Program-made: the position numbers and the translations under genes
Assembly (NCBI GenBank): GCA_030651475.1
Contig: JAUSEW010000018.1
Span: 1 to 49,022 of the forward strand
Origin: Candidatus Levyibacteriota bacterium
GTDB taxonomy: Bacteria > Patescibacteriota > Microgenomatia > Levybacterales > UBA12049
DNA: 49,022 bases
Direction: 5' to 3'
Notes under the pieces: generated by a model
Databases searched by the model: none
The model's input: the letters and a program-made list of their open reading frames with translations, nothing else
What the model was told of the DNA's origin: nothing
Shown: one piece after another, positions 2,303 to 45,335 of the stretch
How the letters are laid out: every line of letters starts with the position of its first letter
Numbering within the stretch: the first letter of the stretch is position 1

Positions 2303-3252
2303 AATGATTTTTCCTCCATTTCTTTTCTCGGCAAGAGTCCGTTTTGCGCTCCAATAATAGCCATTGTAGCCGAAGCATTTATCGTTCCCCATTTCATCGC
2401 TGTTTGTATTGGAAGATTTGAAAGCATTGCCGCTAAGAAACCGCTAGCGTAAGCATCTCCAGCTCCTGTTTTTTCAACAATTGCTGTTTTTATAATAGCT
2501 TGAGTAAGAAATTCTCCTTTTTCATTGACGGCGAACGATCCGTTTTCTCCGTCTGTTATTACTACGATTTTTGGTCCAAGCTTTTGTAATGAAATTAAAA
2601 GCTCATTATTTGATATTTGATTTTTAATGTTTAAGATTGTTATGGCCTCTTCTTTATTCACAAAGAGCATATCTGAAATAGCGAGTACGCTTTTTATTTT
2701 TTGGTAACCTGTGAGAAGCTGCAGTGTCCCGGGATTAAATGCAAGCTTAGAGCCCGAACTTTTTGCAAAAGCTTCGGTTAGTTCATATGTTTTCTCCCAT
2801 TCATTTCCCAAAGATGTAAGATAGATCCACTTAGTGGAAATCCCATCAAAAGAGAAATTGTGTTCTCGTTCAATGTGTTTACTGAAAATAGTTCTTTCTT
2901 GCTGGAAGCTTAAAATTACGGAAAATGACGATGGGCTATTGGCGTTTTGGAGTAAAAAATCCGTATTCACATTTTCTGACTGTAAACCATTAATAATTTT
3001 TTGAGAAAATTCATCTTTTCCTATTTCTGCCATAACAGCAGTTTTCATTTGAAGTTTTGCCAAGCCGACAGCGACATTATAAGCATTCCCTCCAAGCTGC
3101 AGGGAACATGCATCAACTGGAATTTTTTGACCATATGCAACACATAACTCCTTAGTATCTCTATTGAGATGGATATTGGGATTTTCCTCCAGAAGTGATA
3201 AAAAAATATCTATTTTTGCGTCGCCAATACAAATAACATCGAAGGACAACAT
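2299..3252 (-). CDS. PfkB/ribokinase-family carbohydrate kinase
   Basis: GGNAYNVAVGLAKL, FNPG, VNKEEA and EKTGAGDAYASGF; likely start MLSFDVICIGD at 3252. Confidence 0.9.
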   Translation of the reverse strand: MLSFDVICIGDAKIDIFLSLLEENPNIHLNRDTKELCVAYGQKIPVDACSLQLGGNAYNVAVGLAKLQMKTAVMAEIGKDEFSQKIINGLQSENVNTDFLLQNANSPSSFSVILSFQQERTIFSKHIEREHNFSFDGISTKWIYLTSLGNEWEKTYELTEAFAKSSGSKLAFNPGTLQLLTGYQKIKSVLAISDMLFVNKEEAITILNIKNQISNNELLISLQKLGPKIVVITDGENGSFAVNEKGEFLTQAIIKTAIVEKTGAGDAYASGFLAAMLSNLPIQTAMKWGTINASATMAIIGAQNGLLPRKEMEEKSL

Positions 3253-3291
3253 AACTCTATCGTACAAAAAGCAAACTGCGTTTGCAATAAG

Positions 3292-3321
3292 CTTGACTTT
3301 TATCGTCAAGTTTTTTACTAT
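3292..3321 (+). promoter_or_regulatory. sigma70-type promoter for sodN with an inverted repeat over the -35
   Basis: TTGACT (3293-98), 17 bp, TACTAT (3316-21); CTTGAC-N7-GTCAAG at 3292-3310. Confidence 0.55.
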
Positions 3322-3332
3322 AAATTAGAACC

Positions 3333-3824
3333 ATGATAAGAAAACGAATTATAAATTTTCTGATAAAATATCTGCCCGGTGAGATAGCCTATGCGCATTG
3401 CGACATCCCATGCGGTATTTACGATCCTCATGCTGCACAAGTTGGAGCCCATACTGTTATTCGGATGACTCAATTGCTTAACGAGTTAAAAAGAGAAGGC
3501 GAAACAAAAGCAGAACACGATATCGCAAGGATGACCCAGGCGAAAGAAGAACATGGTAGCTTGATTGAGGATGAGCTTGGCACTTTGGAGAATGATTATT
3601 TTAAAGAAGAACACTTTAGGGAATACCCGGAGTTAAAAAAGTTAATTGCTGATGCAGTAAAACTTTCAATTAAAACGAGACAAACTATAGATATGGTATC
3701 GGCAGAACAATTACTTGAGGCGGTTTTAAAGATTGCTGAAATATTTTATAAGACAAAAAATCTTGAACCTGTCCGAGTAAAGTCTCCCTATCCAACAGAG
3801 CGGGAAATTGTCGTCTATAAATAA
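3333..3824 (+). CDS. sodN: Nickel superoxide dismutase precursor
   Basis: Ni-hook AHCDIPCGIYDP after an N-terminal propeptide; sodX adjacent. Confidence 0.93.
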   Translation: MIRKRIINFLIKYLPGEIAYAHCDIPCGIYDPHAAQVGAHTVIRMTQLLNELKREGETKAEHDIARMTQAKEEHGSLIEDELGTLENDYFKEEHFREYPELKKLIADAVKLSIKTRQTIDMVSAEQLLEAVLKIAEIFYKTKNLEPVRVKSPYPTEREIVVYK

Positions 3825-4105
3825 TGCTTCTTTCCAAAATCAAAGTAGTTGGTCATAGTATGGAGCCAACTCTGAAACAAAATAAAATAGTTATAGTGAG
3901 TTCGATTCCATATCTTTTTAAAAAACCAACAATTGGAGATATTGTGGTATTGAAGCGACAAAAGTATATAATAAAACGAATTACAGCAATAAAAAAGGAG
4001 CAAGTTTTTGTTATTGGCGATAACAAAAAAGAAAGCACAGACAGCAGAAATTTTGGTTGGATTAAGAAAGATAGTATTTTGGGAAAAGTTATTCATATTG
4101 GATAG
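3824..4105 (+). CDS. sodX: NiSOD maturation protease (S26 family)
   Basis: VVGHSMEPTL, IIKRI, GDN..STDSRNFG; TAATG coupling to sodN. Confidence 0.88.
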   Translation: MLLSKIKVVGHSMEPTLKQNKIVIVSSIPYLFKKPTIGDIVVLKRQKYIIKRITAIKKEQVFVIGDNKKESTDSRNFGWIKKDSILGKVIHIG

Positions 4106-4630
4106 ATGAGTTTTTTATTTTTCAATTTATTATTATTTGCAATAATTGTTTTTCTTTTTCTTGTTCTTTCTATGGTTTGGCCGCCGGATAGCCCTTGGGC
4201 ACCATGGTGGAGAACAAATAGAAAAACAGCAAGAGCAATGTGCCGTTTGGCAAAAGTCACTAAGGATGACGTTATTTATGATCTGGGATCAGGCGATGGG
4301 ACAGCGCTTCTTGTTGCTTGTAAGGAATTCGGTGCAAAAGGAATAGGAATAGAAATAGACCCATTGCGTGCTCTGATATCTAAAATTAGAGTTAAATTCA
4401 GTAATTCTGAAAAAGATATAAAAATAATCAGAAAAAACTTTTTCGAAGTAGATATTGCAAAAGCAACAGTAATATTTGTATATCTTGTGCCAAAGGCTCT
4501 TAATAAGCTTAAGCAAAAGTTCTTAAAAGAATTAAAATCCGGTACGAGAATAGTAAGTTTTAGATATAAAATGGATTTACCTCTTAAGTCGTACGATAAA
4601 GATTACAATATTAATTTATACACAGTTTAA
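4106..4630 (+). CDS. Membrane-anchored class I SAM methyltransferase (FAM173/aKMT-like)
   Basis: N-terminal TM helix, YDLGSGDG, GIEID and VIFVYL motifs. Confidence 0.8.
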   Translation: MSFLFFNLLLFAIIVFLFLVLSMVWPPDSPWAPWWRTNRKTARAMCRLAKVTKDDVIYDLGSGDGTALLVACKEFGAKGIGIEIDPLRALISKIRVKFSNSEKDIKIIRKNFFEVDIAKATVIFVYLVPKALNKLKQKFLKELKSGTRIVSFRYKMDLPLKSYDKDYNINLYTV

Positions 4631-5994
4631 TAGCATTTAAAAAAGTTAATCCTGTTTGCAACTCCTTCAGCTTGAACAGGTACGCTAAGTATTACCTTAC
4701 ACGCTTTATATATTTTTTCTTTGTTGAATATTCCATCCAAAATATCTTGTTTTACATTAGCTTCCGGATAATTTGCTCCGTGGGCAATGATAATAGTTTT
4801 ACTTGAAATGGCGTCATTTGTTAAAACTTCTTTATCGTATAGGCCTTTTGTAAAAAAATATTCATGAGCATCTCTAATATTATCTAGAGGAGGAGTGCGG
4901 GTTAATATGAGAAGAGCTGGAGTAATGTCGTTAACTCCGTAAAGAAATTTCGGTTTTTCTTTTTTAATGACAGCAATAATTTTATTTATATCATTAATTT
5001 TTTGTAAATTTCTATATGAAGAAATATATGTATAAAGATTAAGGGTAAGGAAAGTAAAAATAATAGTAGGTATTACGAGTTTTTGAATACGAAGCTTGTT
5101 CTTGGAAAATTCAAAAAATTCATACAAAGAAAGGCACAAAAAAGGAATTATGAAGTTAAGATATAAATAGTATACGTCTTGATAGTAAAGGAAAAAGGCA
5201 ATTCCCCAAAGAGAAACAGCGGCAAAAAATTTGTTTTTCTTAAAATTTAACAGATTAAAAATTAAAAGAACAAAGAAGACAAAATCTTTTGTTATGAAAA
5301 ACCATCCAACTTCTGTTTTTGAAATTCCGGCAGGACGCATAAGAGAAAAACCAAAAATATCGTTAAGGAATTGTTTTGGGGCAATAATTAAGGAGGGAAG
5401 AAGAACAATAATTAATGTTACGACAAAACCGATACTAAACTGCAATAATTTCTTCCAATTTCTATCTATTAAAAGTATAGTAAAAAAAGATAAAGGTATA
5501 GGAATAAAATATGCTTTGGTTAATAAGGAAAGAGCAATTAAGGCGCCAGAGATAAGAAATTTATTTTTTTTGAATAAGAAAAAACCTAATACTGCGAATA
5601 GAGAAGCGGTAAAAACGCCGGTCTGATGATCAGAAGTAGACAGAACCATAAAAGAAAAAAGATAAAGTAAGGAACTTATTGTAGAGATAAAATTATTTTT
5701 CGTGGAATGATAAGCCGTTAAATAGATCAGAAAAGCTACAGCTATGACTTCTATCGTGGGCGTGAGGTAAAAAAGATTGATATTGTCTCCAGTTATAAAA
5801 TAATAAAATGATGAAATATATCCAAATAGGGGGAAGTTGGAGAAAAATAAATCTTTGTATAATATTTTCCCGTGGATAATTTGGTATGCGATATTATAAT
5901 AAATATTAGTATCGGAAAGTCTTATTCCTAAATTTGTTACTTTTGCGGCAAAAAATATAAGAATAAAACTAAGAAGGGGAATAAAACGTATCAT
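4627..5994 (-). CDS. GT-C fold (ArnT/PMT-like) membrane glycosyltransferase
   Basis: Many TM helices, SDTNIY..LYKDLFFSNFP loop, conserved LLTK. Confidence 0.7.
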   Translation of the reverse strand: MIRFIPLLSFILIFFAAKVTNLGIRLSDTNIYYNIAYQIIHGKILYKDLFFSNFPLFGYISSFYYFITGDNINLFYLTPTIEVIAVAFLIYLTAYHSTKNNFISTISSLLYLFSFMVLSTSDHQTGVFTASLFAVLGFFLFKKNKFLISGALIALSLLTKAYFIPIPLSFFTILLIDRNWKKLLQFSIGFVVTLIIVLLPSLIIAPKQFLNDIFGFSLMRPAGISKTEVGWFFITKDFVFFVLLIFNLLNFKKNKFFAAVSLWGIAFFLYYQDVYYLYLNFIIPFLCLSLYEFFEFSKNKLRIQKLVIPTIIFTFLTLNLYTYISSYRNLQKINDINKIIAVIKKEKPKFLYGVNDITPALLILTRTPPLDNIRDAHEYFFTKGLYDKEVLTNDAISSKTIIIAHGANYPEANVKQDILDGIFNKEKIYKACKVILSVPVQAEGVANRINFFKCY

Positions 5995-6968
5995 TTTTTA
6001 ATTCTTAAAATAGCCCATCTAATCTTATCTAGCACTTTGTAGATTTCATAAATGAATGGATTAATAACTAGATCAAAACTTCCAATAAATTCGATAAGTT
6101 GTCCTCCATAACCTTCTTTGAAGCGATGGAATCCATACCATGGATCATTTTTATCTGGATTAGGTCCGAGCGCTCCCCACATATCAAATTTTTTTAAACC
6201 AAGCTTTTTCCCAAATTTAATAGCTTCCCACATCATTAGATTTGATGCCATAGTTTCTCTATGAAGACTGCTCGAAGCGCCATAAGGATAATAAAGAGTA
6301 TCGTTATAAACAAAAAGAATCCAGGCAGTTAATATCTGATTTTTATATTTTGCTAATAAAAGCCGTGCAGTTAATTTATCCGTATTCAATTTTTGATTTT
6401 TGATTTTTGATTTTTGATTTTTTAACGTTTCCCACATCAGCCTATGATAGTTTTCTGTGTGCGCATAGAAATTTTGACGTTTAGTTGTTTCTTTTGTAAG
6501 TTTTAGATATTCCTCAAAAGCTTTATCCAAATTATCTTCAATTATTTCAACGTTATGTTTTTGAGCTATCTTAATATTATATCGAGTTTTTGGATGCATT
6601 GATTTTAGTAAATCTTCTTCACTTTTTGTTAAATCCAAAACAAACGTATATTTGGTAAAAAGAGGATGAAAAGATGAACGCAGACCTAAATTTGAAATTT
6701 TAAATTTTAAATTTGAATTTTTTAATACATTTGGTTCAAGTTGGATAAAAATACATTTCTCTTTTTGTCCAATCTCGCGAAGTCTAACTATCATTTCTTT
6801 TGTTGGCATAGGACTTTTGGGTAGATATCCGACCGTCCAAGGAGTATGCGGAATTTTGTGGATTGTTAGCTGAAATCCATTTTCTCTTATAACTTTTAGT
6901 CCTGTTTTTTTTCTAAATTCGCCCCATTCCAAAGATTGCATGGGATAAATTGAATTATCGTTACTCAT
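5991..6968 (-). CDS. FemAB/FemX-family lipid II aminoacyltransferase
   Basis: QSLEWGEFRK, KTRYNIKIA, YYPYGAS, FDMWG and GFHRFKEGYGG. Confidence 0.88.
   Translation of the reverse strand: MSNDNSIYPMQSLEWGEFRKKTGLKVIRENGFQLTIHKIPHTPWTVGYLPKSPMPTKEMIVRLREIGQKEKCIFIQLEPNVLKNSNLKFKISNLGLRSSFHPLFTKYTFVLDLTKSEEDLLKSMHPKTRYNIKIAQKHNVEIIEDNLDKAFEEYLKLTKETTKRQNFYAHTENYHRLMWETLKNQKSKIKNQKLNTDKLTARLLLAKYKNQILTAWILFVYNDTLYYPYGASSSLHRETMASNLMMWEAIKFGKKLGLKKFDMWGALGPNPDKNDPWYGFHRFKEGYGGQLIEFIGSFDLVINPFIYEIYKVLDKIRWAILRIKK
6390..6417. repeat. Perfect heptamer tandem (TTTTTGA)x4 inside femAB
   Basis: Read directly; encodes NQKSKIKNQK. Confidence 0.9.
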
Positions 6969-8836: not shown

Positions 8837-8876
8837 AAAGTATAATGAGAATAATTGACTTTGTTATTGTAGCATA

Positions 8877-8925
8877 TGACCCTTCGACGTTGCTCAGGGT
8901 CATACTGAGCTTACCGAATGTATGA
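8877..8925. repeat. REP-like double-hairpin element (copy 1)
   Basis: TGACCC-TTCGACGTTGCTCA-GGGTCA overlapping TCATAC-TGAGCTTACCGAAT-GTATGA; same layout as 32279-32329. Confidence 0.8.
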
Positions 8926-8929
8926 TTGT

Positions 8930-9592
8930 ATGAAAAAGCTTTTTATTGTGGCTAATTGGAAATCAAATAAAGCAACGTTTGAAGCCAAAAACTGGCTCGA
9001 CGAGTTTAAGATTAATGATTTAGAGATTGAAAACAAAGAAATTGTAATTTGTCCGTCGTTTAATCTTTTATCTTTAGTTTCGTCAGAAATTAGAAATCAG
9101 AAGTTAGAAGTTAAAATTGGCGCACAGGATATTTCTCCTTTTGATGAAGGAGCATATACAGGGGAAATCAATGGGAAACAAATCGAAGAATTTGCAGATT
9201 ATGTTATTATCGGACATTCGGAAAGACGGCAATATTGTAAGGAGGATAACGAAACCTTAAATAGAAAAGTAGTAATGGCTATCAAATATAATTTGCTGCC
9301 AATCTTCTGCGTCCAAAATCAAAATACTCCTGTTCCTCCAAACGTTAAAATTGTAGCCTATGAACCAGTAAGTGCAATTGGCACCGGTAATCCTGATACT
9401 CCGGATAATGCGGAACAAGTTGCGAGAACGATAAGAGCGATTAATAAGGAAATTATATCTGTTCTTTATGGCGGGAGCGTAACATCCGAAAATATAAATA
9501 GTTTTACGAAAATGCCCAATATAGATGGAGTTTTGGTTGGAACTTCAAGTTTAGACTCCATGGAGTTTTTAAAGATCATTAATAATGCATAA
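8930..9592 (+). CDS. tpiA: Triosephosphate isomerase (short form)
   Basis: VANWKS, GAYTGE, IIGHSERR, AYEPVSAIGTG and LYGGSV; likely start MKKLFIV at 8930. Confidence 0.93.
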   Translation: MKKLFIVANWKSNKATFEAKNWLDEFKINDLEIENKEIVICPSFNLLSLVSSEIRNQKLEVKIGAQDISPFDEGAYTGEINGKQIEEFADYVIIGHSERRQYCKEDNETLNRKVVMAIKYNLLPIFCVQNQNTPVPPNVKIVAYEPVSAIGTGNPDTPDNAEQVARTIRAINKEIISVLYGGSVTSENINSFTKMPNIDGVLVGTSSLDSMEFLKIINNA

Positions 9593-10679
9593 AAAAGTAC
9601 TTATTATTTTCCTAATTCTGCTTCTGATAGTAGTTGGCAAAATAACAATCGAAGCAGTCAAATTTTCTCCATTTTTATTTCAGCTGATTTTCACTAAAGA
9701 TATAAATCTTAGCAAATCTGATGACCATTTAAACATATTGCTTTTGGGTATTGGCGGGGGAACGCATGAGGGGCCGGATCTGACAGATACGATAATTTTC
9801 GCCAGTGTCGATATGAACAACAACAAAGCAATTCTTGCATCTATTCCGAGAGATCTATGGAGTCCTGATTTAAACGCAAAAATAAATACAGCCTATTCAG
9901 GAGGAGAAGCAATAAGGAAAGGCGGCGGAATTACTCTCGCAAGCAGTGCTATTTCAAAGATATTAAATCAACCTATAAATTATACAGTTAGAATTGACTT
10001 TAAAGGATTCGTAAAAGCATTGGATATTTTGGGAGGTCTTGATGTAAACGTTGATAAAAGTTTTGATGATTATGAATATCCAATTTCAGGTAAGGAAGAT
10101 GATCTTTGCGGGCACACTCAAGAAGAAGTGTCAGCTCTTGCCACTGCATCTTCACAACTTGAAGCATTTCCTTGCCGTTATACTAATATACATTTCGATA
10201 AAGGATTACAGCATATGGATGGAAAAACTGCTTTAGAATTTGTCAGATCGCGTCATGCGCAAGGAGAAGAGGGTACTGATTTCGCAAGATCTAAGAGGCA
10301 GGAAATTATTATAAAAGCTCTTAAGGATAAAGTATTTTCCTTGCAAGTTCTGGCGAATCCAATAAAAGTAATTGGCGTTTATACTGCAATTAAAGATAGC
10401 GTAGATACCAACATAAAACAGGAGGAGCTTGATGATTTTGTCCGCTTGGCGCAAAAAATGAAAAACGTAAAAATAGAAAGCGCGGTTTTGGATTATGGCG
10501 ATGATCAAACGGGGAGACCTGGACTTTTAATAAATCCACCAATAAGTCAAGAATTTAATTATGCCTGGGTTCTTATCCCAAGAATAGGAAACGGCAACTT
10601 CTCCGAAATACAAAAATTTGTTGCGTGCAAAATAACTATTGGTAATTGTGTGATTTCCCAAAATCCCTTATTTAATTAA
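9585..10679 (+). CDS. LytR-CpsA-Psr (LCP) family transferase
   Basis: TM anchor, LTDTII, SIPRDLW, KINTAY, FVRSRH and DFARSKRQ. Confidence 0.9.
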   Translation: MHKKVLIIFLILLLIVVGKITIEAVKFSPFLFQLIFTKDINLSKSDDHLNILLLGIGGGTHEGPDLTDTIIFASVDMNNNKAILASIPRDLWSPDLNAKINTAYSGGEAIRKGGGITLASSAISKILNQPINYTVRIDFKGFVKALDILGGLDVNVDKSFDDYEYPISGKEDDLCGHTQEEVSALATASSQLEAFPCRYTNIHFDKGLQHMDGKTALEFVRSRHAQGEEGTDFARSKRQEIIIKALKDKVFSLQVLANPIKVIGVYTAIKDSVDTNIKQEELDDFVRLAQKMKNVKIESAVLDYGDDQTGRPGLLINPPISQEFNYAWVLIPRIGNGNFSEIQKFVACKITIGNCVISQNPLFN

Positions 10680-12981
10680 CCTTATAAATTTTCGTAGAGC
10701 CAGATTTAAAAATTGTTTTACCAAGTTTGGAAAATTTTTCCTCATAAAGATTTGGATATTTTTGTCGCTCCAAATCCCCAACATAGATATATGAAATATT
10801 ATATTTCTTGATTAAATTTTTAACATTATCTAATTTAGAATTATCAATGTTATTAACGGACCCTTTTATTATTAACTTTTGGTTTGGATATATTAGATTA
10901 GGATTTTCAATAGTTTTTTTGTTTAGCTCAAACAAATTTCTCCAATCTCCAAACTTAATCTCAGCAGCAATTTTAATTAGATAGTCTCCTGATTGAACGG
11001 TATAAAATTCTTCAGACGAACTATTTATATTTAATTCATATATTTTTTGAACATCCAAAATCCTTGGAGCGGGGATGTCATAAGTTCCGCGCCATAACCA
11101 CTCATGTACTGTCCAGCCCAAAACTGTCGGAAGACCTGTATTCGCAGATATTCTGGCATAGTCCGTATAGGAATCTCCTTGCGCTTCCAAAATAACAGGT
11201 TGTCCTTTGATATTTTTGTTTATCCATTGAATTGCCAAATAATCATTTGAATAAAGAGAATCTAAGTAAGATGTTCCGTTAAGTCCTTTGTAGGAATTTA
11301 ATCCTGCGTAATAAGAATTAATTGCGAAATAAGGATAAATTCCTACGAGGAATAATTCCATCACTCCAATTATTAATACTGCCAATTTTAAATAAGAATG
11401 TTTAATATCTAAAAATATTTTAAAAATTATGTATCCGGAAGAAATAGATAGCATTATGAAAGATTCGTAAACAAGTTTAAACATAGTATTTGCTCTATAG
11501 TGAGCAGGATAAATGTCTTTCAAATACACAAATTCCGGAACAATTATAAGAATTGTAGATAAGATTATTAGAATTCCAACGAAGATATCGCTAGCGTTTA
11601 GCGTATAGCGTTTAGCGTTTAGTTTTAGGAAAATAATAAATGATATAACCCAGAAATAGAAAAATCCGTAAAGGATTACTAATTGCCAAAGAGGAGATTT
11701 TTGACAGTGGTTTGGTTCGAAAAGAAAAGGACCGACATATCCAATGTCAGTCAAAAACTTTGGCGCGCAAAGAATGCCAATATTGGAGACGAAAGGCGTA
11801 AAATTTTTGGAAAAAGGAAGAGAGAAAAGAAATGTTCCTCCGATAAGAAATAAAAGATTCATATATATTCCGGATTTAGGCCTAACATAAAAAATAACAA
11901 GAGCAGTGAGCAGGAAATAGATAATTGCGTCCCAGACGTTTGTCATATACATTACCGCTAATAAAAAACTTACCAAAAATAAAGTTGGAATCTTAAAATT
12001 TTTGGAATAAAAAGATGAAAGTAAAATAGCTATCATAAGTAGAACGAAAGGTATATCGAGAACATGGCCGTGTAGATCGGAAACAACGAAAGAATAAATT
12101 GGGAATTCGTGGATAGTATTAAAAATAAAACGAGTGGCATTAGGATACCAGTATGCATTTGGGAAATTTTGAGGAGAAAATATAAGCTGCCAAAATGGGA
12201 CAGGAGCACCGTTCGTATAAGGAGTAAAAAATGAATAGATAGAGTGGATGTTTCCTCCTATAGTTGCAAGAAAAGCAATTATTAGTCCGCCGCCAATAGC
12301 GTATAGCGTATAACGTTCTCGCCCTGAGCGAAGCCGAAGGGTAGCGTTTAGTTTGGAAAGAAGGTTTATTCCGATGGAAAAGCTGGCAGTAAAGGTTAAA
12401 GAGAATAAACTTGCTATCATGAGATTATAAGTTATAGAAGAAGGGATTTGAGATATTCTTGTCAAAAGAGCAGTTACCAGATGGCCGAAATAATAATAGT
12501 TTATGGGGAATGGGGTAAACCACATATCACGCGGCGGAAAATAATCAGCCCGTAAAATGGAATTTACGAATCCAAAATCCATAAATTTCTCCAGTCCATG
12601 GATATCAGGCTGAAATCCTCTTATATATGACCAAAAGACAAGAGCTGCCAAAAAGATTGCCTCTTCAAGCAAATAGAGTCTCCAATTTTCCTTAAAATCT
12701 AATTTCGTTAAGAATTGAGTTTTTTTGGCAACAAATAGATTAATAATCAAGCAAATTACACAAACAAGAATAATAGTAGGCATTTGAAATGGAAGAACTT
12801 TTAATACCCCAAGTAAAAAAACTATATAACTTAAAACTGCTATGCCCAAAATTCTTGAGAAAATATATCCTCTGTCAGAGAAATTAGAAAAAATAATTGT
12901 AGTCAGAGGTAGAAAAATAATTCCGATAGCAAAAAACATTGGCCACCATTTAAAAACGTAAGATAAATCAGATAAAAACAT
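10672..12981 (-). CDS. DUF2298/YYY-type GT-C-like membrane protein with an inserted LysM domain
   Basis: EKFMDFGF, INYYYFGH, IHEFPIYSF..DLHGH, NTMFK and GWTVHEWLWRG; LysM at about 10864-11004. Confidence 0.85.
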   Translation of the reverse strand: MFLSDLSYVFKWWPMFFAIGIIFLPLTTIIFSNFSDRGYIFSRILGIAVLSYIVFLLGVLKVLPFQMPTIILVCVICLIINLFVAKKTQFLTKLDFKENWRLYLLEEAIFLAALVFWSYIRGFQPDIHGLEKFMDFGFVNSILRADYFPPRDMWFTPFPINYYYFGHLVTALLTRISQIPSSITYNLMIASLFSLTFTASFSIGINLLSKLNATLRLRSGRERYTLYAIGGGLIIAFLATIGGNIHSIYSFFTPYTNGAPVPFWQLIFSPQNFPNAYWYPNATRFIFNTIHEFPIYSFVVSDLHGHVLDIPFVLLMIAILLSSFYSKNFKIPTLFLVSFLLAVMYMTNVWDAIIYFLLTALVIFYVRPKSGIYMNLLFLIGGTFLFSLPFSKNFTPFVSNIGILCAPKFLTDIGYVGPFLFEPNHCQKSPLWQLVILYGFFYFWVISFIIFLKLNAKRYTLNASDIFVGILIILSTILIIVPEFVYLKDIYPAHYRANTMFKLVYESFIMLSISSGYIIFKIFLDIKHSYLKLAVLIIGVMELFLVGIYPYFAINSYYAGLNSYKGLNGTSYLDSLYSNDYLAIQWINKNIKGQPVILEAQGDSYTDYARISANTGLPTVLGWTVHEWLWRGTYDIPAPRILDVQKIYELNINSSSEEFYTVQSGDYLIKIAAEIKFGDWRNLFELNKKTIENPNLIYPNQKLIIKGSVNNIDNSKLDNVKNLIKKYNISYIYVGDLERQKYPNLYEEKFSKLGKTIFKSGSTKIYKVN
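11592..11626. repeat. Heptamer array (TAGCGTW)n
   Basis: TAGCGTT TAGCGTA TAGCGTT TAGCGTT TAGTTTT; encodes KLNAKRYTLNA. Confidence 0.9.
12297..12355. repeat. Heptamer array (TAGCGTW)n interrupted by a 24-bp REP-like element
   Basis: TAGCGTA TAGCGTA TAACGTT [CTCGCCCTGAGCGAAGCCGAAGGG] TAGCGTT TAGTTTG. Confidence 0.85.
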
Positions 12982-14623: not shown

Positions 14624-16348
14624 CTATTGTTTTTTGAAGATCATCACTTTCGGGTGGTCATATACAGTGAAGGATTCGTCAGCGTTTTGGTCATTGATTG
14701 GAATATCCAACAGCGGAATTGTCGGTAGATTTTCAAATTCTGCTACCTTTTCGTATCCCAAGCGCCCGTTAAAAAGATCTTTATAATATTTTGTGGTTAT
14801 TGGATAGCAATGATAAGGAGGGAATTTTTTGCAATCAGTAAGTTTTTGTAACGGTACATATAAGCGGTTTGAGGCGATGATAATATAATCAATCTCACCA
14901 AGGTTTTTATTTATTATTTGCCATTTTTGAAAAGTGTCAGGATCATAAAGAGGAAGGGTTATGGTTTTGTATGGCGATCCTCCAAGAGGCAATTGGTCAT
15001 CCCAATGCTCAACAGCGATAGTTTTATCCAAAGGTATATTTTGGTAAATCCAATTAGATGCAAGAACTCGAGTATTAGGTTTTGTATAAATATTCATAAA
15101 AGCCAAGGGCCAAACGAGTAAGAGAATTATGAATAATGAATTAAGAATTATAGATATAGACGGATTTATTTTTAGTTTTTCTTTAACTAATGAATGTAAC
15201 TTCCAAACTAGAACTGCGGCAAAAAGAGAAAAAAGAGGATATAAGGGAAGCATGTAGCGCATCCATCCAACTGCAAATTTCCCTACAACGAAGAAATAAG
15301 TCCAAAAAAAGACTACCAAAATCAATTCCTGTGCCCACTTAGTTTTCTTCTCTTTTCTTATGGCAACAATAGTGAAATATAATGCTCCGACAAAAGACAC
15401 AATTGCTAAAATTGGTCCTTGTCCCCATAAGAAAATATTTTTTAACTCGTAAAAATATGGTATTTTTCCGACGTATTGTAGAGTATAGGGAAATGTGAAA
15501 GCGTCATAAGTCATCTGCCGCTGTTGTATTGTTTGCTGCCAAAATTCACGAAAATCTATAAGAGCATACGGCTCGACAATTATAAAGACGACGATTGCAG
15601 ATATGGCAACGACGACACCTTTTAAGATAAGCGTTTTAATAAATTTCGGTATATGAGGAAACCATATTTTGGGATGATGAAGATTTTTTAAAAAAATCAG
15701 GATGAAATCTATTGCCAATGCGAAACCGATGGATGCCAAGATTACCGTAGCGCTTATTTTTGTTCCTAAAGCAAAACCAAATGCAGCGCCTGTTATAAGA
15801 GCGTTACGTATCGTTGACTTCTCATAAAAATTTATAAGAAGATAAAGGGTGAGGAAAATAAAAAAATTTAAAAGCGTGTCAACCGCATAGAAATGAGAAA
15901 GTTGAATAGGAAGAACGCTTATCGCATAAAAGAAAGCAGAAAGATTTGCAATATATTTATTGAATAATTTTTTGCCCAAAAGGTAGATTATAAATAGAGT
16001 TCCAATATCAAAAAATGCAGAAATAAAGCGGCCGACAAGATTAATCTTTTCATACTGCGCGAACAATAGACTGCTATTGCTTATAAAAGTTCCGCTTAAT
16101 TTTAATAAATACAAGGGTAAACTTCCGTAGGCAAAAAAATGAGGATTCAAGGGGCTATTTACGGATAGAAATTCTTGTATAGATATCGGCATTTCAAGAG
16201 GTACGGTAAAAAGAGTTATCGCCCTTTCATCTGGATGCAGATGAAATCCCTGATCCCAATTAAGATCATACAATCTAAGAATAAATCCAAGAGCAAGAAT
16301 AACGACCAGAACGTAATTAATTTGTTTTATATGCCAACTTTTAATCAT
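14624..16348 (-). CDS. GT39/PMT-like GT-C glycosyltransferase
   Basis: LHPDER, NPHFFAYGSLP, GRFISA, TK, RYMLP and VYDHP. Confidence 0.82.
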   Translation of the reverse strand: MIKSWHIKQINYVLVVILALGFILRLYDLNWDQGFHLHPDERAITLFTVPLEMPISIQEFLSVNSPLNPHFFAYGSLPLYLLKLSGTFISNSSLLFAQYEKINLVGRFISAFFDIGTLFIIYLLGKKLFNKYIANLSAFFYAISVLPIQLSHFYAVDTLLNFFIFLTLYLLINFYEKSTIRNALITGAAFGFALGTKISATVILASIGFALAIDFILIFLKNLHHPKIWFPHIPKFIKTLILKGVVVAISAIVVFIIVEPYALIDFREFWQQTIQQRQMTYDAFTFPYTLQYVGKIPYFYELKNIFLWGQGPILAIVSFVGALYFTIVAIRKEKKTKWAQELILVVFFWTYFFVVGKFAVGWMRYMLPLYPLFSLFAAVLVWKLHSLVKEKLKINPSISIILNSLFIILLLVWPLAFMNIYTKPNTRVLASNWIYQNIPLDKTIAVEHWDDQLPLGGSPYKTITLPLYDPDTFQKWQIINKNLGEIDYIIIASNRLYVPLQKLTDCKKFPPYHCYPITTKYYKDLFNGRLGYEKVAEFENLPTIPLLDIPINDQNADESFTVYDHPKVMIFKKQ

Positions 16349-17987
16349 TTTTCATTTTTTTAAAGATAAAAACAGTTGGTCTATCGAATACATTTGCTGT
16401 TTCCTCGAGTGAAGAGACCGGATTTCCTAGATAGGTTATCTTGCAAAAAATATCACAAGGTGTTTCATAGACTTTTCGATAGCCTAATTTATTATTAAAC
16501 AATAAACTATAAAATTCATTTCCATTTTTGAATTTTTGTTTATTTAAAAGGCGAGTTTTCATAATCCGTTGACTTGGAAGAATTATATAGTCAGTTTTAT
16601 GAAAAAGAGAATAAAGCTCACCTAATTTATTATTATCAGGTTGTTCAAGGTCATAAAAATTAAATAAAGTAATATTTGGAAAAAATGAATTAAAGGGAAG
16701 TATTCCCAAATCGTAAACTTCACTTACGATGAGTGCGCTACTGGGAATATTTTGCTTTGCAAAGTTAACAGCAGATATCCTAGCATCACCACTCATAAAA
16801 GCAGTTTTAAAATAAGAGAAGGCAAAAATTATCGTAGACATACCTAATATCAGAAATATAATTTTAAAAAAAATCCTTATGGCATTTATTTTTACTTCTA
16901 ACAAGTTTGTTATTGATAAGGAGATTATAAGATAGATAAATGGTAAAGTCGGCATCATATATCTTGTCCACTTAGCGAATAAAAATGCTTGAGGAAGGAA
17001 TAGTATTAAGTAGCAAGTATTAAGTATTAAGTATTGGGGATTTTTAGTTTTTATTCCTTTGAGAATCAAATAAAAAAACGAGAAAATAAAAACAATTGTT
17101 AAAGCTGGATTTAGAAGAAAAGGGTAAATTTTTGTGAATTGGAAAATAATAGGAGCAGAATTAAAAAATTCACCAGTGTAGAATACGGGTAGAGTTCCCA
17201 ATGCGACTGATGATTCGTATTTTAGGCTGGATAAAAATGACCCAAAATCCAAAAATGCGAAAGGAGAAGTTAAAAATAATATAATTATTGCCGGAATAAA
17301 AACTATTAATGAATCAACGATTAAACCCTTTATTAGAGGTAATGGTTTTAGTCTATTTTTAAGATTATTTATTAAAACTAAAAATAGAATATATAAAAAA
17401 ATAAAACCTCCTGATATTTTCGTAGATAATAAAAGCCCAAAAATAATACCTATTATCAAAAGCAGTTTCTTGTTGCCCGAGTTTAAAAATAATAAAGAAA
17501 GATAAAAGATAACTAACGATAAGAATGTTATCCACGTTTCAAATGTAGAGAAATGGGCGAATTGAATAAGCCCAATACTAAAGGTAGCCAAAAAGGCGGA
17601 AAAAATTCCTGTTTTTTTATCTTTTAATGTTTTTCCTGTAATGTAAATTAGGGGAATAATTAACAGAGAAAGAAGAGCAGAATAAAATCTTCCTATAATA
17701 ATTGATTCTTCAAAAGATGCTTGGGTTATAGGTTTTAAAGAAAAAATTACATTGATTATTATAGTACTAAAATAATTTAAGTATATTGGAAAATTTCCGT
17801 AGGCAAAAAAATGAGGATTCATTTGTAGAGGAAAATTAAGTTGAGAAGCCGCAGAAGCAATATTACGTTCATCCGGGTGGAAATAAAAAGGAGCGCCCCA
17901 ATTAAGATTATAAAATCTTAAAAACCCGCCAATTAATATTAATAAAATTATTATTAATGTTTCCTTATTTTTTAAGAAATTTTTCAT
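16341..17987 (-). CDS. GT39/PMT-like GT-C glycosyltransferase, paralogue of its neighbour
   Basis: FHPDER, NPHFFAYGNFP, RYMMP and VFDRP. Confidence 0.82.
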   Translation of the reverse strand: MKNFLKNKETLIIILLILIGGFLRFYNLNWGAPFYFHPDERNIASAASQLNFPLQMNPHFFAYGNFPIYLNYFSTIIINVIFSLKPITQASFEESIIIGRFYSALLSLLIIPLIYITGKTLKDKKTGIFSAFLATFSIGLIQFAHFSTFETWITFLSLVIFYLSLLFLNSGNKKLLLIIGIIFGLLLSTKISGGFIFLYILFLVLINNLKNRLKPLPLIKGLIVDSLIVFIPAIIILFLTSPFAFLDFGSFLSSLKYESSVALGTLPVFYTGEFFNSAPIIFQFTKIYPFLLNPALTIVFIFSFFYLILKGIKTKNPQYLILNTCYLILFLPQAFLFAKWTRYMMPTLPFIYLIISLSITNLLEVKINAIRIFFKIIFLILGMSTIIFAFSYFKTAFMSGDARISAVNFAKQNIPSSALIVSEVYDLGILPFNSFFPNITLFNFYDLEQPDNNKLGELYSLFHKTDYIILPSQRIMKTRLLNKQKFKNGNEFYSLLFNNKLGYRKVYETPCDIFCKITYLGNPVSSLEETANVFDRPTVFIFKKMKND

Positions 17988-19263
17988 TTTTGTTTATTAT
18001 TTTAGCGATTTTTTCTCCAAGCTCTACTGCATAATTTGTTCCTCTATCCCAAGGGTAAACTTGTTGGATATTAGCAAGATATACATTGGGAATTGGAGTT
18101 TCAAAAGGAGGCATTATTTTTGAATAATTAATCGGGATAATAGGTTGTGAAAAAGGAGCCTTAAAGAGCTGATAACTGATAATAGATAGTTTATAGTTAG
18201 GATTTATTTTTTTCAAAAAAGGATCATAGATTTTCAATAATGCTTCAGAGCCCATTTTCATATGCGGATGATCATAAGGCAAATAGTTTCCTAAATAGAT
18301 TATATGTTCATTATTATAATATTTTTTATCCATAAAATTTGTATGTTCGACAACAGCCATTATGGGTGAGTTTTTTTCGCATATACTTAACCAATACGTA
18401 CCGTCTTCTAAAAACTGTTTTTTTAAACGTAATACAAGATTTAAAGAACCCAATCCTTTAAGATTTGTTAACTTATTTTTATAATCATTTGGAAGTTGAG
18501 GCGCAATTTTAATAAACGAGAAAGAAGGTAGAGTAACAACGACTGCATCAAATGTTAGCGTATAGCGTTTAGCGTCTAGCGTATAGTTAATTGAAAGTTT
18601 TTCATTTCTTTTTAGTTCAGTTACTTCTGTATTAAAAAAAACTTTTCCTCCATTTTGTTTAATTTTTTCAACAAGAGCATTTGCGAAGTTTAAAAATCCT
18701 CCTTCCGGATAGGCAAGGGAAGAAGTTCTTTTTACCAGTCTAGCCCAAAACCATGCAAGAGATATGTCATTAGCGTATTTGCCGAATTTATTAATAAGCT
18801 GAGGTTCCCAAATTTTCTCGTAAGCATTTTTTCCCATTGTTTTAGAAAGAAAGTCCGCAGCTTTTATTTTTTCAAGAGGTTTCCAAAAGGGGTTATAACG
18901 AAGCAGCCCGATAACTGCCGCCATTCTCAATTTTTCGTATAAATTAAGCTTTGGGAAGATCAAAACTTTATTTAAAGAATCAAGTTGATAAATATTACTA
19001 TCCAAATAAACAGAAGTTTTTGACCTTTTTATTAAAAATTTATAACCAATTTCTTTTGCAAACCCTAAAACACTTTTGTCATTTGTAAACCAATGATGGT
19101 AGTGTTTTTCCAAAGACCACTCCCACTCTTTTTGAGAAAATCCTACCGCAAGTCCTCCAGGACTATCATCTTTTTCAAATAGAGTAACTTGATGATTTTT
19201 TTTCGTAAGATAATAAGCTGCGGACAGACCTGTAAATCCAGCTCCTATAATTGCTATCTTCAT
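17965..19263 (-). CDS. FAD-dependent oxidoreductase (amine oxidase/protoporphyrinogen oxidase-like fold)
   Basis: IAIIGAGFTGLSAAY, LEKHYHHWF and YPWDRGTNYAV. Confidence 0.8.
   Translation of the reverse strand: MKIAIIGAGFTGLSAAYYLTKKNHQVTLFEKDDSPGGLAVGFSQKEWEWSLEKHYHHWFTNDKSVLGFAKEIGYKFLIKRSKTSVYLDSNIYQLDSLNKVLIFPKLNLYEKLRMAAVIGLLRYNPFWKPLEKIKAADFLSKTMGKNAYEKIWEPQLINKFGKYANDISLAWFWARLVKRTSSLAYPEGGFLNFANALVEKIKQNGGKVFFNTEVTELKRNEKLSINYTLDAKRYTLTFDAVVVTLPSFSFIKIAPQLPNDYKNKLTNLKGLGSLNLVLRLKKQFLEDGTYWLSICEKNSPIMAVVEHTNFMDKKYYNNEHIIYLGNYLPYDHPHMKMGSEALLKIYDPFLKKINPNYKLSIISYQLFKAPFSQPIIPINYSKIMPPFETPIPNVYLANIQQVYPWDRGTNYAVELGEKIAKIINKNEKFLKK
18556..18590. repeat. Heptamer array (TAGCGTN)n
   Basis: TAGCGTA TAGCGTT TAGCGTC TAGCGTA TAGTTAA; encodes NYTLDAKRYTL. 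Confidence 0.9.
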
Positions 19264-32278: not shown

Positions 32279-32329
32279 TGACCCATTCGATAAAACTCAG
32301 GGTCATCCTGAGCGAAGTCGAACGGATGA
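32279..32329. repeat. REP-like double-hairpin element (copy 2)
   Basis: TGACCC-ATTCGATAAAACTCA-GGGTCA overlapping TCATCC-TGAGCGAAGTCGAAC-GGATGA. Confidence 0.8.
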
Positions 32330-39331: not shown

Positions 39332-39427
39332 AGTAGTATTATACGATATATACTCTATAATTATGGTAAGAAATCCTTGACAAAGTTATCGTGTGGGGAC
39401 TATCATAAGTTTTTCTAGAGGGTATTT

Positions 39428-42082: not shown

Positions 42083-42084
42083 TC

Positions 42085-42276: not shown

Positions 42277-42313
42277 TTTTCACCTCCTTCTAATATCAGG
42301 ATATCACAAGTAA

Positions 42314-42360
42314 AGGTTAAATTCTTGGAAATAGGGGTTTTTGGGAGGTGATTTTGGGAC
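42314..42360 (-). repeat. Orphan copy of the metG 3' end
   Basis: 43/47 identical to 43544-43590; reads PKITSQKPLFPRI*. Confidence 0.9.
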
Positions 42361-42385
42361 AGTAGAATTTGCTCTGATCTTAAAT

Positions 42386-42411
42386 ACTTCAATGATTTAA
42401 ATCATTGAAGT
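42386..42411. promoter_or_regulatory. Perfect 26-bp palindrome downstream of the TrpR-like gene
   Basis: ACTTCAATGATTT|AAATCATTGAAGT. Confidence 0.75.
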
Positions 42412-42863: not shown

Positions 42864-42869
42864 ACAATA

Positions 42870-42916
42870 CTTTAATGATTTAAATCATTAAAGCAGATAT
42901 GCTTGTATTTTGTCAA
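42870..42916 (-). promoter_or_regulatory. Promoter with a 24-bp palindromic operator over the -10
   Basis: TTGACA (42916-42911), 18 bp, TTTAAT inside CTTTAATGATTT|AAATCATTAAAG (42870-93). Confidence 0.7.
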
Positions 42917-42938
42917 TAAGCATTTCTTTAATGGGAAA

Positions 42939-42976
42939 TTATATCTTGGAAAAAGAAGGATTTGGAAAGAAATTTT
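42939..42976 (-). repeat. Second, more decayed copy of the metG 3' end
   Basis: TTATATCTTGGAAAAAGAAGGATTTGGAAAGAAATTTT; reads KISFQILLFPR, with a 1-bp deletion before the stop. Confidence 0.55.
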
Positions 42977-43043
42977 ATTCACGCTCAACCCCAGGGGTCG
43001 AAAACCAATATACAGTTAAGCAAAATAAAAGAAATCCTATAGT

Positions 43044-43072
43044 TTGACTTGAAGGTTTTATTACAGTATAAT
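43044..43072 (+). promoter_or_regulatory. Near-consensus promoter, leaderless configuration
   Basis: TTGACT, 17 bp, TATAAT; ATG 7 nt downstream. Confidence 0.7.
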
Positions 43073-43079
43073 TCCTCTT

Positions 43080-43550
43080 ATGAATTTGAAAGAAAGATGG
43101 GGAGTTTTAACAGAAGTCAAAACAGCTCCTGTGCCAAAGTTAACTCCAGAATTAATGATAAAGATTAATGCAGTCTACGAGAAACTTTCTTCTAGGAAAG
43201 GATTTCCTACTAACTACTGTGGTCCAGCTATGCAGGAATTAAGAAGGTTGGGATTTCAAGGTATTAGAGGATTTTTCCAAGTTGGTAGATCTGGGGATTT
43301 AGATTTACTTCTGGATCATTCTCATGATTGGGCAGAGGATGCAGGTGGGAAAATTATAGACCTTACAGCAGCACAATATAATAGAGAGAAGTCCTTAGGA
43401 GCAGTTATACCATCTGGAGTTTTGATAATAGATAAAGAGAACCCTTTATATGAAAGATACATAATACTCGAAAGACTTCCAACGAGACCTTTATTCCCTA
43501 CGCCAAAGGACGTATTCTCAAAATGGAAAGTAGTTTTGCTAGGAGGTTAA
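43080..43550 (+). CDS. Hypothetical protein with possible Cys-His-Asp (transglutaminase/papain-like) triad
   Basis: NYCG...HSHDWAE...IIDLTAAQY; has its own promoter. Confidence 0.6.
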   Translation: MNLKERWGVLTEVKTAPVPKLTPELMIKINAVYEKLSSRKGFPTNYCGPAMQELRRLGFQGIRGFFQVGRSGDLDLLLDHSHDWAEDAGGKIIDLTAAQYNREKSLGAVIPSGVLIIDKENPLYERYIILERLPTRPLFPTPKDVFSKWKVVLLGG

Positions 43551-44983
43551 ATTCTCGGAAAAAGGGGGTTTTGGGAGGTGATTTTTGGACCTTTAAATTG
43601 TTCTTCGATTTTTTCTGCGGTTTCGGGTAAAAATGGTTCGAGAAGCACTGCAATTTCCTGAATTTGATCAACTGCATGGGAAAGTATAGTTTTTAATTTT
43701 GGAGAATTTTGTTTTGCCAATTCCCAAGGCTTTTCGTTGTTGATATAGCGGTCAAGTTCTGTAATTTTGGTCCACACGAAAGAAAGAGCATCATTAAGAC
43801 GGTACTGCGAAAAGCTTTCAGAATATTCTTCAACAGAAATTAAGTGGCTTGAGGTTTTACCTGCTCCTTCCATCTGGCGGTAATTTGAAGTTTCACAAAG
43901 TTTTGCAACGCGGGAAATTAAATTTCCCAGTCCATTTGCCAGATCGGCATTATAAGCTTGCTTAAGTTTTTCTTCCGAAATATCACTATCGTTTGTAAGA
44001 TTGGTATATCTTAAAAGATAATATCGTACTGCATCTGCTCCATATTTTTTAACCCAATCGGTTGGCCTAATAATATTTCCCAATGATTTGCTAATTTTTC
44101 GTCCGTTAAGATTTAAAAATCCATTTACAAGAATTGTTTTTGGTAGTTTGATATTTGCAGATTTTAGCATCGCAGGCCACAAGAGAGCATGCCATCTCAA
44201 ATTGTCTTTTCCTAAAATATGTACATCTGCAGGCCAAAATTTCTCAAACAATTTTTTATTTTCCAGAAATCCTACGCCTGTTAAATAGTTTGTTAAAGCA
44301 TCAAACCAAACGTACATAACTTGTTTTGTTTCATTGGGAATCGGAACTCCCCAGGTAAAGTTAGATCTTGAAATTGGAATATCTTTTATATTTTTGGCAA
44401 ACTCTAACATTTCGTTTGCTCGGTGTTGGGGAAAAATAAAATCCGGGTTATTCTTAATGTGCTTAATTAGAAAATCTTTGTATTTGGACCATTTGAAGAA
44501 ATAATTTTCTTCAGTTATTTTTTTAATTTCTAGGTTTGGGTGAAAAGAGCATTTGCCATTTTTTAAATCCGAATCATCACAATAAGCTTCGCATCCTTCG
44601 CAATAAAGACCGCTATATTCGCCAAGATAAATATCTCCATTTTCATCAACTCTTTTCCAAATTTCTTGAGCAACTTTGGCGTGATCTTCATCTGTAGTTT
44701 CTATAAATCTGTCATAAGAAATATTTACAGAATCTTGTTGTTCTTTATCAGTTGCGGCAATTTTTCTTACGAACTCCAAGGGAGATATGCCGGATGCTTT
44801 TGCAGCTTTTTCTGCTTTTTGTCCATATTCATCAGTACCGGTAAGAAAGAAAACGTTATCTTTGCCAAGCAGTATGCGATTGTATCTGGCCAAAACATCC
44901 GCAGCTATTTTTTGGAAAGCATGGCCAATATGAATAGTATCGTTAACGTAGTCGATGGCTGTTGTGATGTAAAATTTATTCAT
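43547..44983 (-). CDS. metG: Methionyl-tRNA synthetase (short form)
   Basis: HIGH, TGTDEYGQK, YCEGCE, YVWFDAL, KISKS and LFPRI. Confidence 0.96.
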   Translation of the reverse strand: MNKFYITTAIDYVNDTIHIGHAFQKIAADVLARYNRILLGKDNVFFLTGTDEYGQKAEKAAKASGISPLEFVRKIAATDKEQQDSVNISYDRFIETTDEDHAKVAQEIWKRVDENGDIYLGEYSGLYCEGCEAYCDDSDLKNGKCSFHPNLEIKKITEENYFFKWSKYKDFLIKHIKNNPDFIFPQHRANEMLEFAKNIKDIPISRSNFTWGVPIPNETKQVMYVWFDALTNYLTGVGFLENKKLFEKFWPADVHILGKDNLRWHALLWPAMLKSANIKLPKTILVNGFLNLNGRKISKSLGNIIRPTDWVKKYGADAVRYYLLRYTNLTNDSDISEEKLKQAYNADLANGLGNLISRVAKLCETSNYRQMEGAGKTSSHLISVEEYSESFSQYRLNDALSFVWTKITELDRYINNEKPWELAKQNSPKLKTILSHAVDQIQEIAVLLEPFLPETAEKIEEQFKGPKITSQNPLFPRI

Positions 44984-44990
44984 AGTTAAG

Positions 44991-45335
44991 CTATTTTAGC
45001 AGTTTAGGTCCTTTTTTTAAAGAAAGCTCGAGGCTTATGAAAAGAGCGATAAGAATAATCAGGAATAAAGGGTGAGTGAGGTGAATAAAGCGCAGGAAAA
45101 GATAGACTGTTGCAAAAAGTCCAAAAAGCAATCCTTGTTTGGTGCTAATGAAAAGATAGGAAAATATGGAATAAATGAAAAGAAAAATCAGAAGGAAGAA
45201 AACGTATATAAATGGAAAATGAAAGATGGAAAATGGAAAATTTGCCGTTGGAGATTGATAGATTGCAAGGTAGATAAGCGAAGTTAAGGATAAAAGGCCA
45301 AGAATAAGAAGCATGGAGGGATGTTTTCGCCGCAT
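44991..45335 (-). CDS. Small membrane protein
   Basis: 3-4 TM; likely start MRRKHPS at 45335; contains heptamer array 45210-45244. Confidence 0.6.
   Translation of the reverse strand: MRRKHPSMLLILGLLSLTSLIYLAIYQSPTANFPFSIFHFPFIYVFFLLIFLFIYSIFSYLFISTKQGLLFGLFATVYLFLRFIHLTHPLFLIILIALFISLELSLKKGPKLLK

Follow-up and report, generated by a model that had tools for sequence, protein, structure and literature searches.

Heptanucleotide Tandem Arrays Within Protein-Coding Genes of a Patescibacteria Genome: Period, Turnover and Spread

Heptamer Arrays in the Window

A contig of 49,022 nucleotides from a Candidatus Levyibacteriota bacterium (JAUSEW010000018.1; this whole stretch is named the window below) carries short tandem arrays of 7-nt units inside genes of unrelated proteins. 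An earlier note, made from the letters of this DNA, listed 14 such tracts and ascribed them to a dedicated process that generates or spreads period-7 repeats and remodels protein loops. The window is contig C4 of a genome of 0.91 Mb in 36 contigs, which is designated here as G000. Its relatives, 40 in all, are numbered from G001 onward, and the two same-genus genomes used for comparison, G001 and G002, show 80-90% nucleotide identity to G000 along syntenic stretches. The sole public run containing the whole stretch is labelled as a groundwater metagenome, and the nearest named relative is a metagenome-assembled genome of a 'Patescibacteria group bacterium', to which LepA is 93% identical. It may be concluded that the arrays belong to the known class of heptanucleotide repeats, like the short tandemly repeated repetitive (STRR) sequences of cyanobacteria, in a new coding and multi-family form, and that the mechanism behind them is partly understood.

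Each listed tract was assessed by the number of matches at lag 7 in comparison with 200 codon-shuffled copies of the window. Nine of the 14 tracts are far above chance, with at most 0.065 expected per window for each, and two more, at 18167 and 12297, are recognized as arrays with the help of the relatives. The other three were rejected as arrays, being at chance level: the tract at 7803 has 13/21 lag-7 matches, with 18 such tracts expected, and those at 27427 and 38873 have 10/21 each, with about 250 expected. Period-7 calls of Tandem Repeats Finder (TRF) coincide with most of the listed coordinates. Every real tract lies inside an open reading frame (ORF) of translation table 11, and the gene names proposed in the earlier note agree with Pfam for PfkB, FemAB, UvrD, TIM, DUF2298, two PMT_2 proteins, amine oxidase, LepA and TatD.

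All the real arrays of the window are on the minus strand, except for that of the triosephosphate isomerase (TIM) gene, which is on the plus strand. An array of about four units (2607-2634; lag-7 matches 17/21) is found in the PfkB kinase ORF 2299-3309, and its counterpart in G001 has a 21-nt GC-rich insert within. Two five-unit arrays belong to the FemAB-family ORF 5991-6968. One of them, with the sense unit AAAAATC, is perfect and corresponds to loop 2 of the protein (6383-6426; 21/21); it is shorter by exactly 21 nt in G002, and a GC hairpin takes its place in G001. The second, in loop 1 (6686-6722; 24/28), has equal length in G000, G001 and G002, with different units in all three. The five-unit array of the TIM ORF 8918-9592 (9083-9118; 22/28) spans the segment directly before the conserved IGAQD strand and gives only two additional residues compared with solved TIM structures. 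The isomerase itself is short, 224 residues, and so is its best solved relative, 7r9b_A, with 223 residues.

The DUF2298 ORF 10672-12981 contains two arrays of the AACGCTA type (sense strand). The array at 11591-11626 (24/28) belongs to a set of four 30-mers of this genome that are the same letter for letter, and a base change in its third unit abolishes an in-frame TAA. The tract at 12297-12355 is not periodic overall (22/52), being a three-unit array (TRF 12296-12316) interrupted by a GC-rich hairpin element of 24 nt; at 12296-12355, G001 and G002 have an uninterrupted heptamer array of another unit, 24 nt shorter. In the first PMT_2 (GT-C) ORF, 14624-16348, an imperfect four-unit array (15123-15151; 17/21) is letter-identical to an array in contig C9 and to copies in G001, G008 and G014. 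The second PMT_2 ORF, 16341-17987, has a five-unit array (17002-17042; 23/28), in which two adjacent units bear the same change in G002.

Two arrays were found in the FAD amine-oxidase ORF 17965-19263. That at 18555-18590 (22/28), also of the AACGCTA type, exceeds its counterpart in G002 by 24 nt and that in G001 by 42 nt, or six units. Taken alone, the tract at 18167-18201 is marginal (19/28, 0.48 expected), and it is considered a decayed array because G001 and G002 hold a near-perfect five-unit array at the same spot. The last five-unit array of the window (45210-45244; 21/28) is located in ORF 44991-45374, which has no Pfam family.

Period Specificity

Genome-wide counts were made on the contigs not shorter than 3 kb, 17 in number and 881 kb in total, and the period detector required at least 18/21 matches at a given lag. 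The excess of period 7 over other periods that had been suggested from the window is confirmed genome-wide against the codon-shuffled control. The detector gave 69 hits at period 7, corresponding to about 63 distinct loci, as a few arrays were hit twice, and 0-3 hits at each of the remaining periods from 4 to 13; the 25 hits at period 14 are a harmonic. Exact runs of at least three copies numbered 18 at period 7 versus 1, 0 and 1 at periods 6, 8 and 9, respectively, and none of this kind appeared at period 7 in five Markov-5 simulations. Among 695 rows reported by TRF, 178 were at period 7, and at scores of at least 50 there were 40 rows at period 7 versus one each at periods 8-11.

After codon shuffling only eight period-7 hits were left, all of them in non-ORF DNA that had not been shuffled. 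Crude ORFs cover about 92% of the DNA and include 61 of the 69 hits, therefore genes are not avoided, and the excess is observed in coding and non-coding DNA alike. The arrays are head-to-tail repetitions of a short unit, longer than expected by chance for this genome, as is characteristic of long simple-sequence repeats. A process specific to period 7 exists, and it is neither a codon effect nor an effect of composition.

The opinion that the arrays are a product of chance or composition in an AT-rich genome, or an artefact of assembly, may be based on the three listed tracts that proved to be at chance level. Its probability is practically negligible, as period-7 arrays are practically absent from shuffled coding DNA in the Markov-5 and codon-shuffled controls, the remaining periods do not rise above background, and arrays occur at orthologous positions in independently assembled relatives.

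Length and Unit Changes Between Close Relatives

A first set of 37 arrays was compared with G001 and G002, and flanks of 60 nt were sufficient to anchor 33 of the 74 array-genome pairs. No difference in length was found in 17 of these pairs. All 15 non-zero differences in coding arrays were multiples of 3, and six of the 15 were multiples of 21 (-21 four times, +21 once and -42 once), in line with the earlier idea that three units, or 21 nt, keep the frame. In a second set, with 12 of 34 pairs anchored, the coding differences were 0, 0, 0, -9 and -9, and the non-coding ones were 0, 0, 0, -1, -1, -28 and +28; non-coding arrays do show length steps of 7 that are not divisible by 3. In both sets together, 17 of 17 non-zero coding differences are in frame. 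Other length differences, from -3 to +30, also exist, and part of them are linked to GC-hairpin inserts. Unit-wise changes in length between related genomes, characteristic of this class of repeats, were observed.

The unit was regarded as replaced when the segment of a relative had a share of lag-7 matches of at least 0.7 and was less than 75% identical to G000. In six of the 17 pairs of equal length the unit was replaced along the whole array, for example, AAAATCA versus AAATGGC/A, CAATTTC versus AAATCTC and AATTTAA versus AATGGAA. Such a change across the whole array at fixed length is concerted evolution. The short state of the arrays consists of about two imperfect units, and at C9 82677 the first and the last of the five units of G000 are retained in G001. 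The short state of FemAB loop 2 in G002 is a contraction, because the outgroup genus, represented by G014, has the five-unit state. Replication slippage in the 7-nt register would create and homogenise the arrays, and contraction from five to two units would be an easy step of this kind.

Reading Frame and Protein Loops

As 7 is not a multiple of 3, the units are read in all three phases and the encoded peptides have a period of seven residues. Sense arrays rich in A give peptides rich in Lys, Asn, Gln and Ser, and T-rich sense arrays give peptides rich in Phe, Leu and Ile, several of them N-terminal or in membrane proteins. Where the unit puts TAA in frame once per three units, exactly that unit has a base change.

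The earlier note had proposed loop remodelling in housekeeping proteins and alignment with orthologues as a check of it. This proposal is supported by alignments to relatives and, for TIM, by solved structures, and the arrays coincide with indel-rich, variable loops. In an alignment of the FemAB family from 12 genomes, both arrays fall in the two indel-rich loops, and other genera have other 7-residue-periodic peptides there. As a whole, the arrays occupy fixed, tolerant loop positions common to relatives. The loops of a YjeF-like and a ValRS-like protein in another family of the order behave similarly, with five-unit arrays built of different units in G025 and G038; the ValRS-like loop is exactly seven residues shorter in G029, and the YjeF-like loop is 12 residues shorter in G029, G036 and G040. 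Selection would retain only stop-free, frame-preserving versions in such tolerant loops, and the peptides encoded by the arrays may well have no function of their own.

It is rather improbable that the arrays are functional, either as selected peptide linkers or as DNA/RNA binding sites or phase-variation switches. A function is favored by one array with fully identical nucleotides in four genera and by another that is conserved in the same way in two families, and heptanucleotide switches exist elsewhere, for example, the duplication or loss of a 7-nt unit reported for a Pseudomonas gene (bioRxiv 10.1101/2024.05.01.592015). However, the encoded peptides are not conserved, and one and the same loop has three unrelated peptides in three congeners. 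In phase-variable contingency loci a change of copy number alters the frame or the spacing of the promoter and thereby switches the gene, whereas the 17 non-zero coding differences between congeners all preserve the frame. Moreover, some arrays are situated in the middle of genes of essential enzymes, such as TIM, UvrD-family neighbours and a ValRS-like protein, and to switch these genes on and off would be lethal; the same kind of array occurs also between genes.

Copies at Unrelated Loci and Size of Arrays

The suggestion that the arrays spread is justified by identical imperfect arrays at unrelated loci, some of which have overwritten older arrays in the G000 lineage. In a census of 110 arrays (TRF, at least 3.5 copies), 24 have at least 24 nt in common, letter for letter, with an array at another locus and form 10 groups, the flanks of recurring arrays being unrelated. 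Most of these groups are imperfect arrays with shared idiosyncratic variants. The shared variants of the GAATTAT-type cassette (window 15123) include changes irrelevant to stop removal, and in the case of one cassette the gene at C17 96356 and that at C6 31284 use opposite strands of it. Convergent stop removal as a source of identical arrays is ruled out by these two features for most groups. In a census of the AAATTAA array, GAA was found in 17 of 27 hits, TAA in 5, TCA in 3 and other variants in 2, which alone is still compatible with convergence.

Four exact copies of the AACGCTA-type 30-mer exist in G000; a search for the exact 30-mer in G001 and G002 found none, and the 40 relatives contain one copy that differs by a single mismatch. 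At two loci with exact copies, C21 33728 and C18 70778, and at the related window position 12296, G001 and G002 hold arrays of other units, therefore the older arrays were overwritten in the G000 lineage. The copy at window position 11592 is a plausible donor, because it is the only one with a degenerate counterpart of the same type in G002. At C18 70778-70842, two different cassettes stand back to back, each with a twin elsewhere. Two cassettes are scattered among the relatives as well: the AAATTAA-type 30-mer (at most two mismatches) was found in 13 of 41 genomes and the GAATTAT-type 27-mer in 12 of 41, and reversed-pattern controls gave three and two hits in all, respectively. The presence of the same array or unit at many unrelated loci is a feature shared with STRR-like families, whereas the predominantly intergenic location of these families is not observed here, with 61 of the 69 hits inside ORFs. 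Template switching between arrays would copy them among loci, and it is preferred to homologous recombination, as the flanking sequences bear no relation to each other.

The most frequent length of coding arrays is 30-35 nt, which comprises 55 of 136 TRF rows, and a few others form a group of 52-54 nt. The 10 perfect tracts measure 31-35 nt, and none exceeds this length. Arrays overall cluster at 29-35 nt, that is, 4.3-5 units, and never exceed about eight units. Three new units added to two old ones would account for this size within genes. The five-unit size cannot be due to frame constraint alone, because 14 of 21 arrays without an open frame of at least 60 residues are also of 29-34 nt and share the modal size.

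These data have to be considered also from the standpoint of another explanation, which is possible, although unlikely. According to it, the arrays are non-autonomous cassettes of about 30-35 nt that are written, moved and overwritten by a putative, patchily distributed enzyme, with slippage playing a secondary role. By analogy, such cassettes might be compared with repetitive extragenic palindromic (REP) elements moved by RAYT transposases, or might result from templated rewriting by a reverse transcriptase. The uniform size in coding and non-coding DNA, letter-identical imperfect arrays at unrelated loci and across several genera, the two adjoining cassettes with twins at C18 70778-70842 and the overwriting of older arrays without flank homology agree with it. 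On the other hand, the 112 arrays fall into 55 unit classes, and a twin is missing for the majority of arrays; the arrays have no terminal inverted repeats, hairpins or target-site duplications; and the differences of exactly 21, 28 or 42 nt found between relatives would be expected from loss and gain of whole units.

Distribution Among Relatives and Candidate Factors

The density of arrays was surveyed in 31 relatives, with 20-200 kb sampled from each, and in the whole genome of G000; the samples of G001 and G002 are biased because they were picked by synteny with array-rich regions of G000. The density in G000 is 7.8 arrays per 100 kb. The highest value, 23.3 per 100 kb (14 arrays in 60 kb), was found in G025 from another family, followed by G010 (18.1), G009 (11.7), G015 (10), G026 from a third family (10), G011 (9.6), G014 (8.8), G027 (5, one array in 20 kb), G019 (4.1) and G017 (3.7). 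The remaining 21 sampled genomes have 0-1.7 arrays per 100 kb, among them G024 with one array in 200 kb, G030 with none in 200 kb and G029 with none in 60 kb. In every array-rich genome, period 7 is the only raised period. Array density is bimodal and patchy among relatives, even within one genus: G029 and G025 belong to one GTDB genus, with DNA identity of only about 70-76%. Such rich and poor genomes inside one genus are also in agreement with a patchily distributed enzyme.

Mismatch repair was considered among the factors that could control the density. The MutS_V domain was found in eight of 41 genomes of this order, all eight array-poor, and a search for it in G000-G002 did not find it. 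The lack of mismatch repair would be permissive, not sufficient: its loss can be at most permissive, because most sampled genomes without MutS are also array-poor. As the genomes are related to each other, the link with MutS is a hint rather than a test. Four other families were rejected as factors. None of them divides array-rich from array-poor genomes within the set lacking MutS. The large subunit of exonuclease VII is over the cut-off in 3 of 41 genomes and does not track density; RecJ is over the cut-off in 34 of 41, including array-rich genomes; the Y-family polymerase IMS is present in 36 of 41 and was not found in G000-G002, again without tracking of density; and the cold-shock domain, in 10 of 41, gives a mixed picture.

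None of the five families tested in 41 genomes tracks the array-rich genomes in this search, which was not genome-wide, and the putative cassette enzyme is left with no candidate gene. From the supposition of a dedicated process, a period-7-specific process, loop remodelling and spread of the arrays may be accepted, whereas its dedication finds no counterpart among these families.

Origin of the Arrays

In our opinion, the most probable explanation, to which we assign a probability of about 60%, is a lineage-specific bloom of heptanucleotide simple-sequence arrays in a genome of Patescibacteria, or the Candidate Phyla Radiation (CPR), by slippage and template switching filtered by selection.

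Several circumstances weigh against this explanation. Simple slippage gives no reason for 7 and only 7, and the array size of 29-35 nt, kept even without frame constraint, is unaccounted for by it. The birth of a five-unit array in an essential gene is unexplained, because two units cannot gain three in one classical slippage step. Overwriting by an array of a different unit without flank homology is no known outcome of slippage. The occurrence of the rich G025 and the poor G029 in one GTDB genus suggests a factor that was gained or lost, and many genomes lacking MutS are array-poor. Finally, an AAATTAA-unit array with T-to-G in the third unit, located in the YjeF-like gene, shows 100% nucleotide identity across four genera, with flanks about 35% diverged, which looks like constraint rather than junk. 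An array of the AAATTAA type is likewise conserved in a second gene across two families and in a non-coding stretch of three congeners. This conservation may be a consequence of homogenisation and stop avoidance or of a real constraint, and it is a poor fit to simple rapid turnover.

A bolder version of the cassette explanation, somewhat less probable still, would place the arrays in a new class of minimal mobile DNA. In it, five-unit cassettes of about 33 nt would be copied into and over other arrays without flank homology by a lineage-specific activity, rewriting tolerant loops of essential proteins. If true, such an activity would account for the fixed size of five units and for the 7-nt register, as well as for blooms that come and go abruptly among sister genomes.

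Comparison with Known Systems

Mrazek and co-workers reportedly described in 2007 a genome-wide excess of heptanucleotide long simple-sequence repeats in prokaryotes. According to two papers (PMC4692102, PMC4679880), in most bacterial genomes no other long simple repeats are as abundant as heptamers, polymerase slippage was proposed for their origin, and units divisible by three are those mostly found in coding regions. The arrays of G000 have in common with such repeats tandem 7-nt units, the over-representation of heptamers above all others and length change between relatives. They differ in that about nine in ten are coding, are read in three phases and are capped near five units.

The same papers (PMC4692102, PMC4679880) describe dispersed heptamer families with one and the same unit in cyanobacteria (STRR), Xanthomonas and Beggiatoaceae as mainly intergenic and without a known mechanism of spreading. 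Their units are GGGAATC in Xanthomonas, GGGGA(C/T)T in Nostoc and TAACTGA in Beggiatoaceae (PMC4692102, PMC4679880), and the modal copy number reported for Xanthomonas and Nostoc is about four (PMC4692102). The comparison with cyanobacterial STRR made in the earlier note was apt, as the same array occurs at many unrelated loci and the distribution is patchy. Modal size, dispersal at unrelated loci and patchy phylogenetic distribution are common to both. STRR-like families lie mostly between genes, the intragenic share in Xanthomonas being 7-11%; their G-rich units number one or a few in a given genome, and their arrays contain up to 26 units, whereas the arrays considered here have dozens of AT-rich unit types, are mostly genic and contain at most about eight units.

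Rickettsia palindromic elements (RPE) are palindromic hairpins of 100-150 nt that persist in frame in housekeeping genes and are translated as an extra loop. An in-frame repeat translated as a loop is the common feature, whereas here the repeats are direct, of 30 nt and without a hairpin. The inverted repeat characteristic of in-frame palindromic elements, both RPE and REP/RAYT, is thus absent from the arrays.

The genic repeats of Borgs are known to have unit lengths that are multiples of 3. The unit of 7 nt does not share this property, and the peptide period of seven residues is achieved only by reading in three phases. The tandem repeats of Borgs are described as rapidly evolving and creating new, probably disordered, protein segments (PMC9879509). 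A regulator gene of Pseudomonas fluorescens is reported to acquire and lose a 7-nt unit within its coding sequence (bioRxiv 10.1101/2024.05.01.592015). In that contingency locus every such step changes the frame, so that the gene is switched, whereas here only frame-preserving differences between genomes are observed. A full-text literature search for heptamer arrays in genes of CPR/Patescibacteria found no description of them.

The analysis adds to the knowledge of this class the 21-nt quantisation of length, the replacement of units at fixed length, the overwriting of arrays between loci and the bimodal density. Bacterial heptanucleotide repeats have been unexplained since 1990 (STRR) and 2007 (genome-wide excess). 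Sister genomes with and without the bloom, orthologous two-unit and five-unit states and overwriting datable to one lineage provide an exceptionally clean natural experiment, so that the origin of the 7-nt register and the mode of array spread become testable questions. Essential enzymes of ultra-small bacteria tolerate, and go on gaining, arbitrary 7-residue-periodic loop peptides. This is of importance for the annotation and modelling of CPR proteins and for the use of such loops as insertion-tolerant sites.

Hairpin Elements and Other Features

A second small repeat family was found beside the arrays. It consists of GC-rich elements that form hairpins, are about 20-27 nt long and have a core resembling CCCTGAGCGAAG(C/T)CGAAGGG, and it has 21 sites in the genome at no more than four mismatches. 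In the window, one element (12317-12342) is in frame in the DUF2298 ORF, and two others (8880-8899 and 32306-32325) are intergenic. In G001, other small GC hairpins are found inside heptamer arrays, or in place of them, at four orthologous spots.

Two heptamer arrays, one of them conserved, are situated in a gene-free stretch of about 770 nt, C6 90931-91703 (locus L148, about 1090-1860). Its 3' part is strongly conserved, contains a hairpin and is common to G001 and G002. The idea that this stretch contains an RNA gene serving as the master copy of the arrays was set aside. Search of it against Rfam and for tRNA and tmRNA gave no match, and it may be an unlisted RNA gene.

A weak tract called by TRF at period 7 or period 15 (window 5240-5267) is 94-97% conserved in G001 and G002, with a share of lag-7 matches of 0.56, and is probably ordinary coding sequence rather than an array. 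Seven contigs of 1-2 kb (C1, C16, C22, C30, C31, C32 and C34) have a G+C content of 0.59-0.67 versus 0.35-0.40 in the genome and are probably foreign to the bin.

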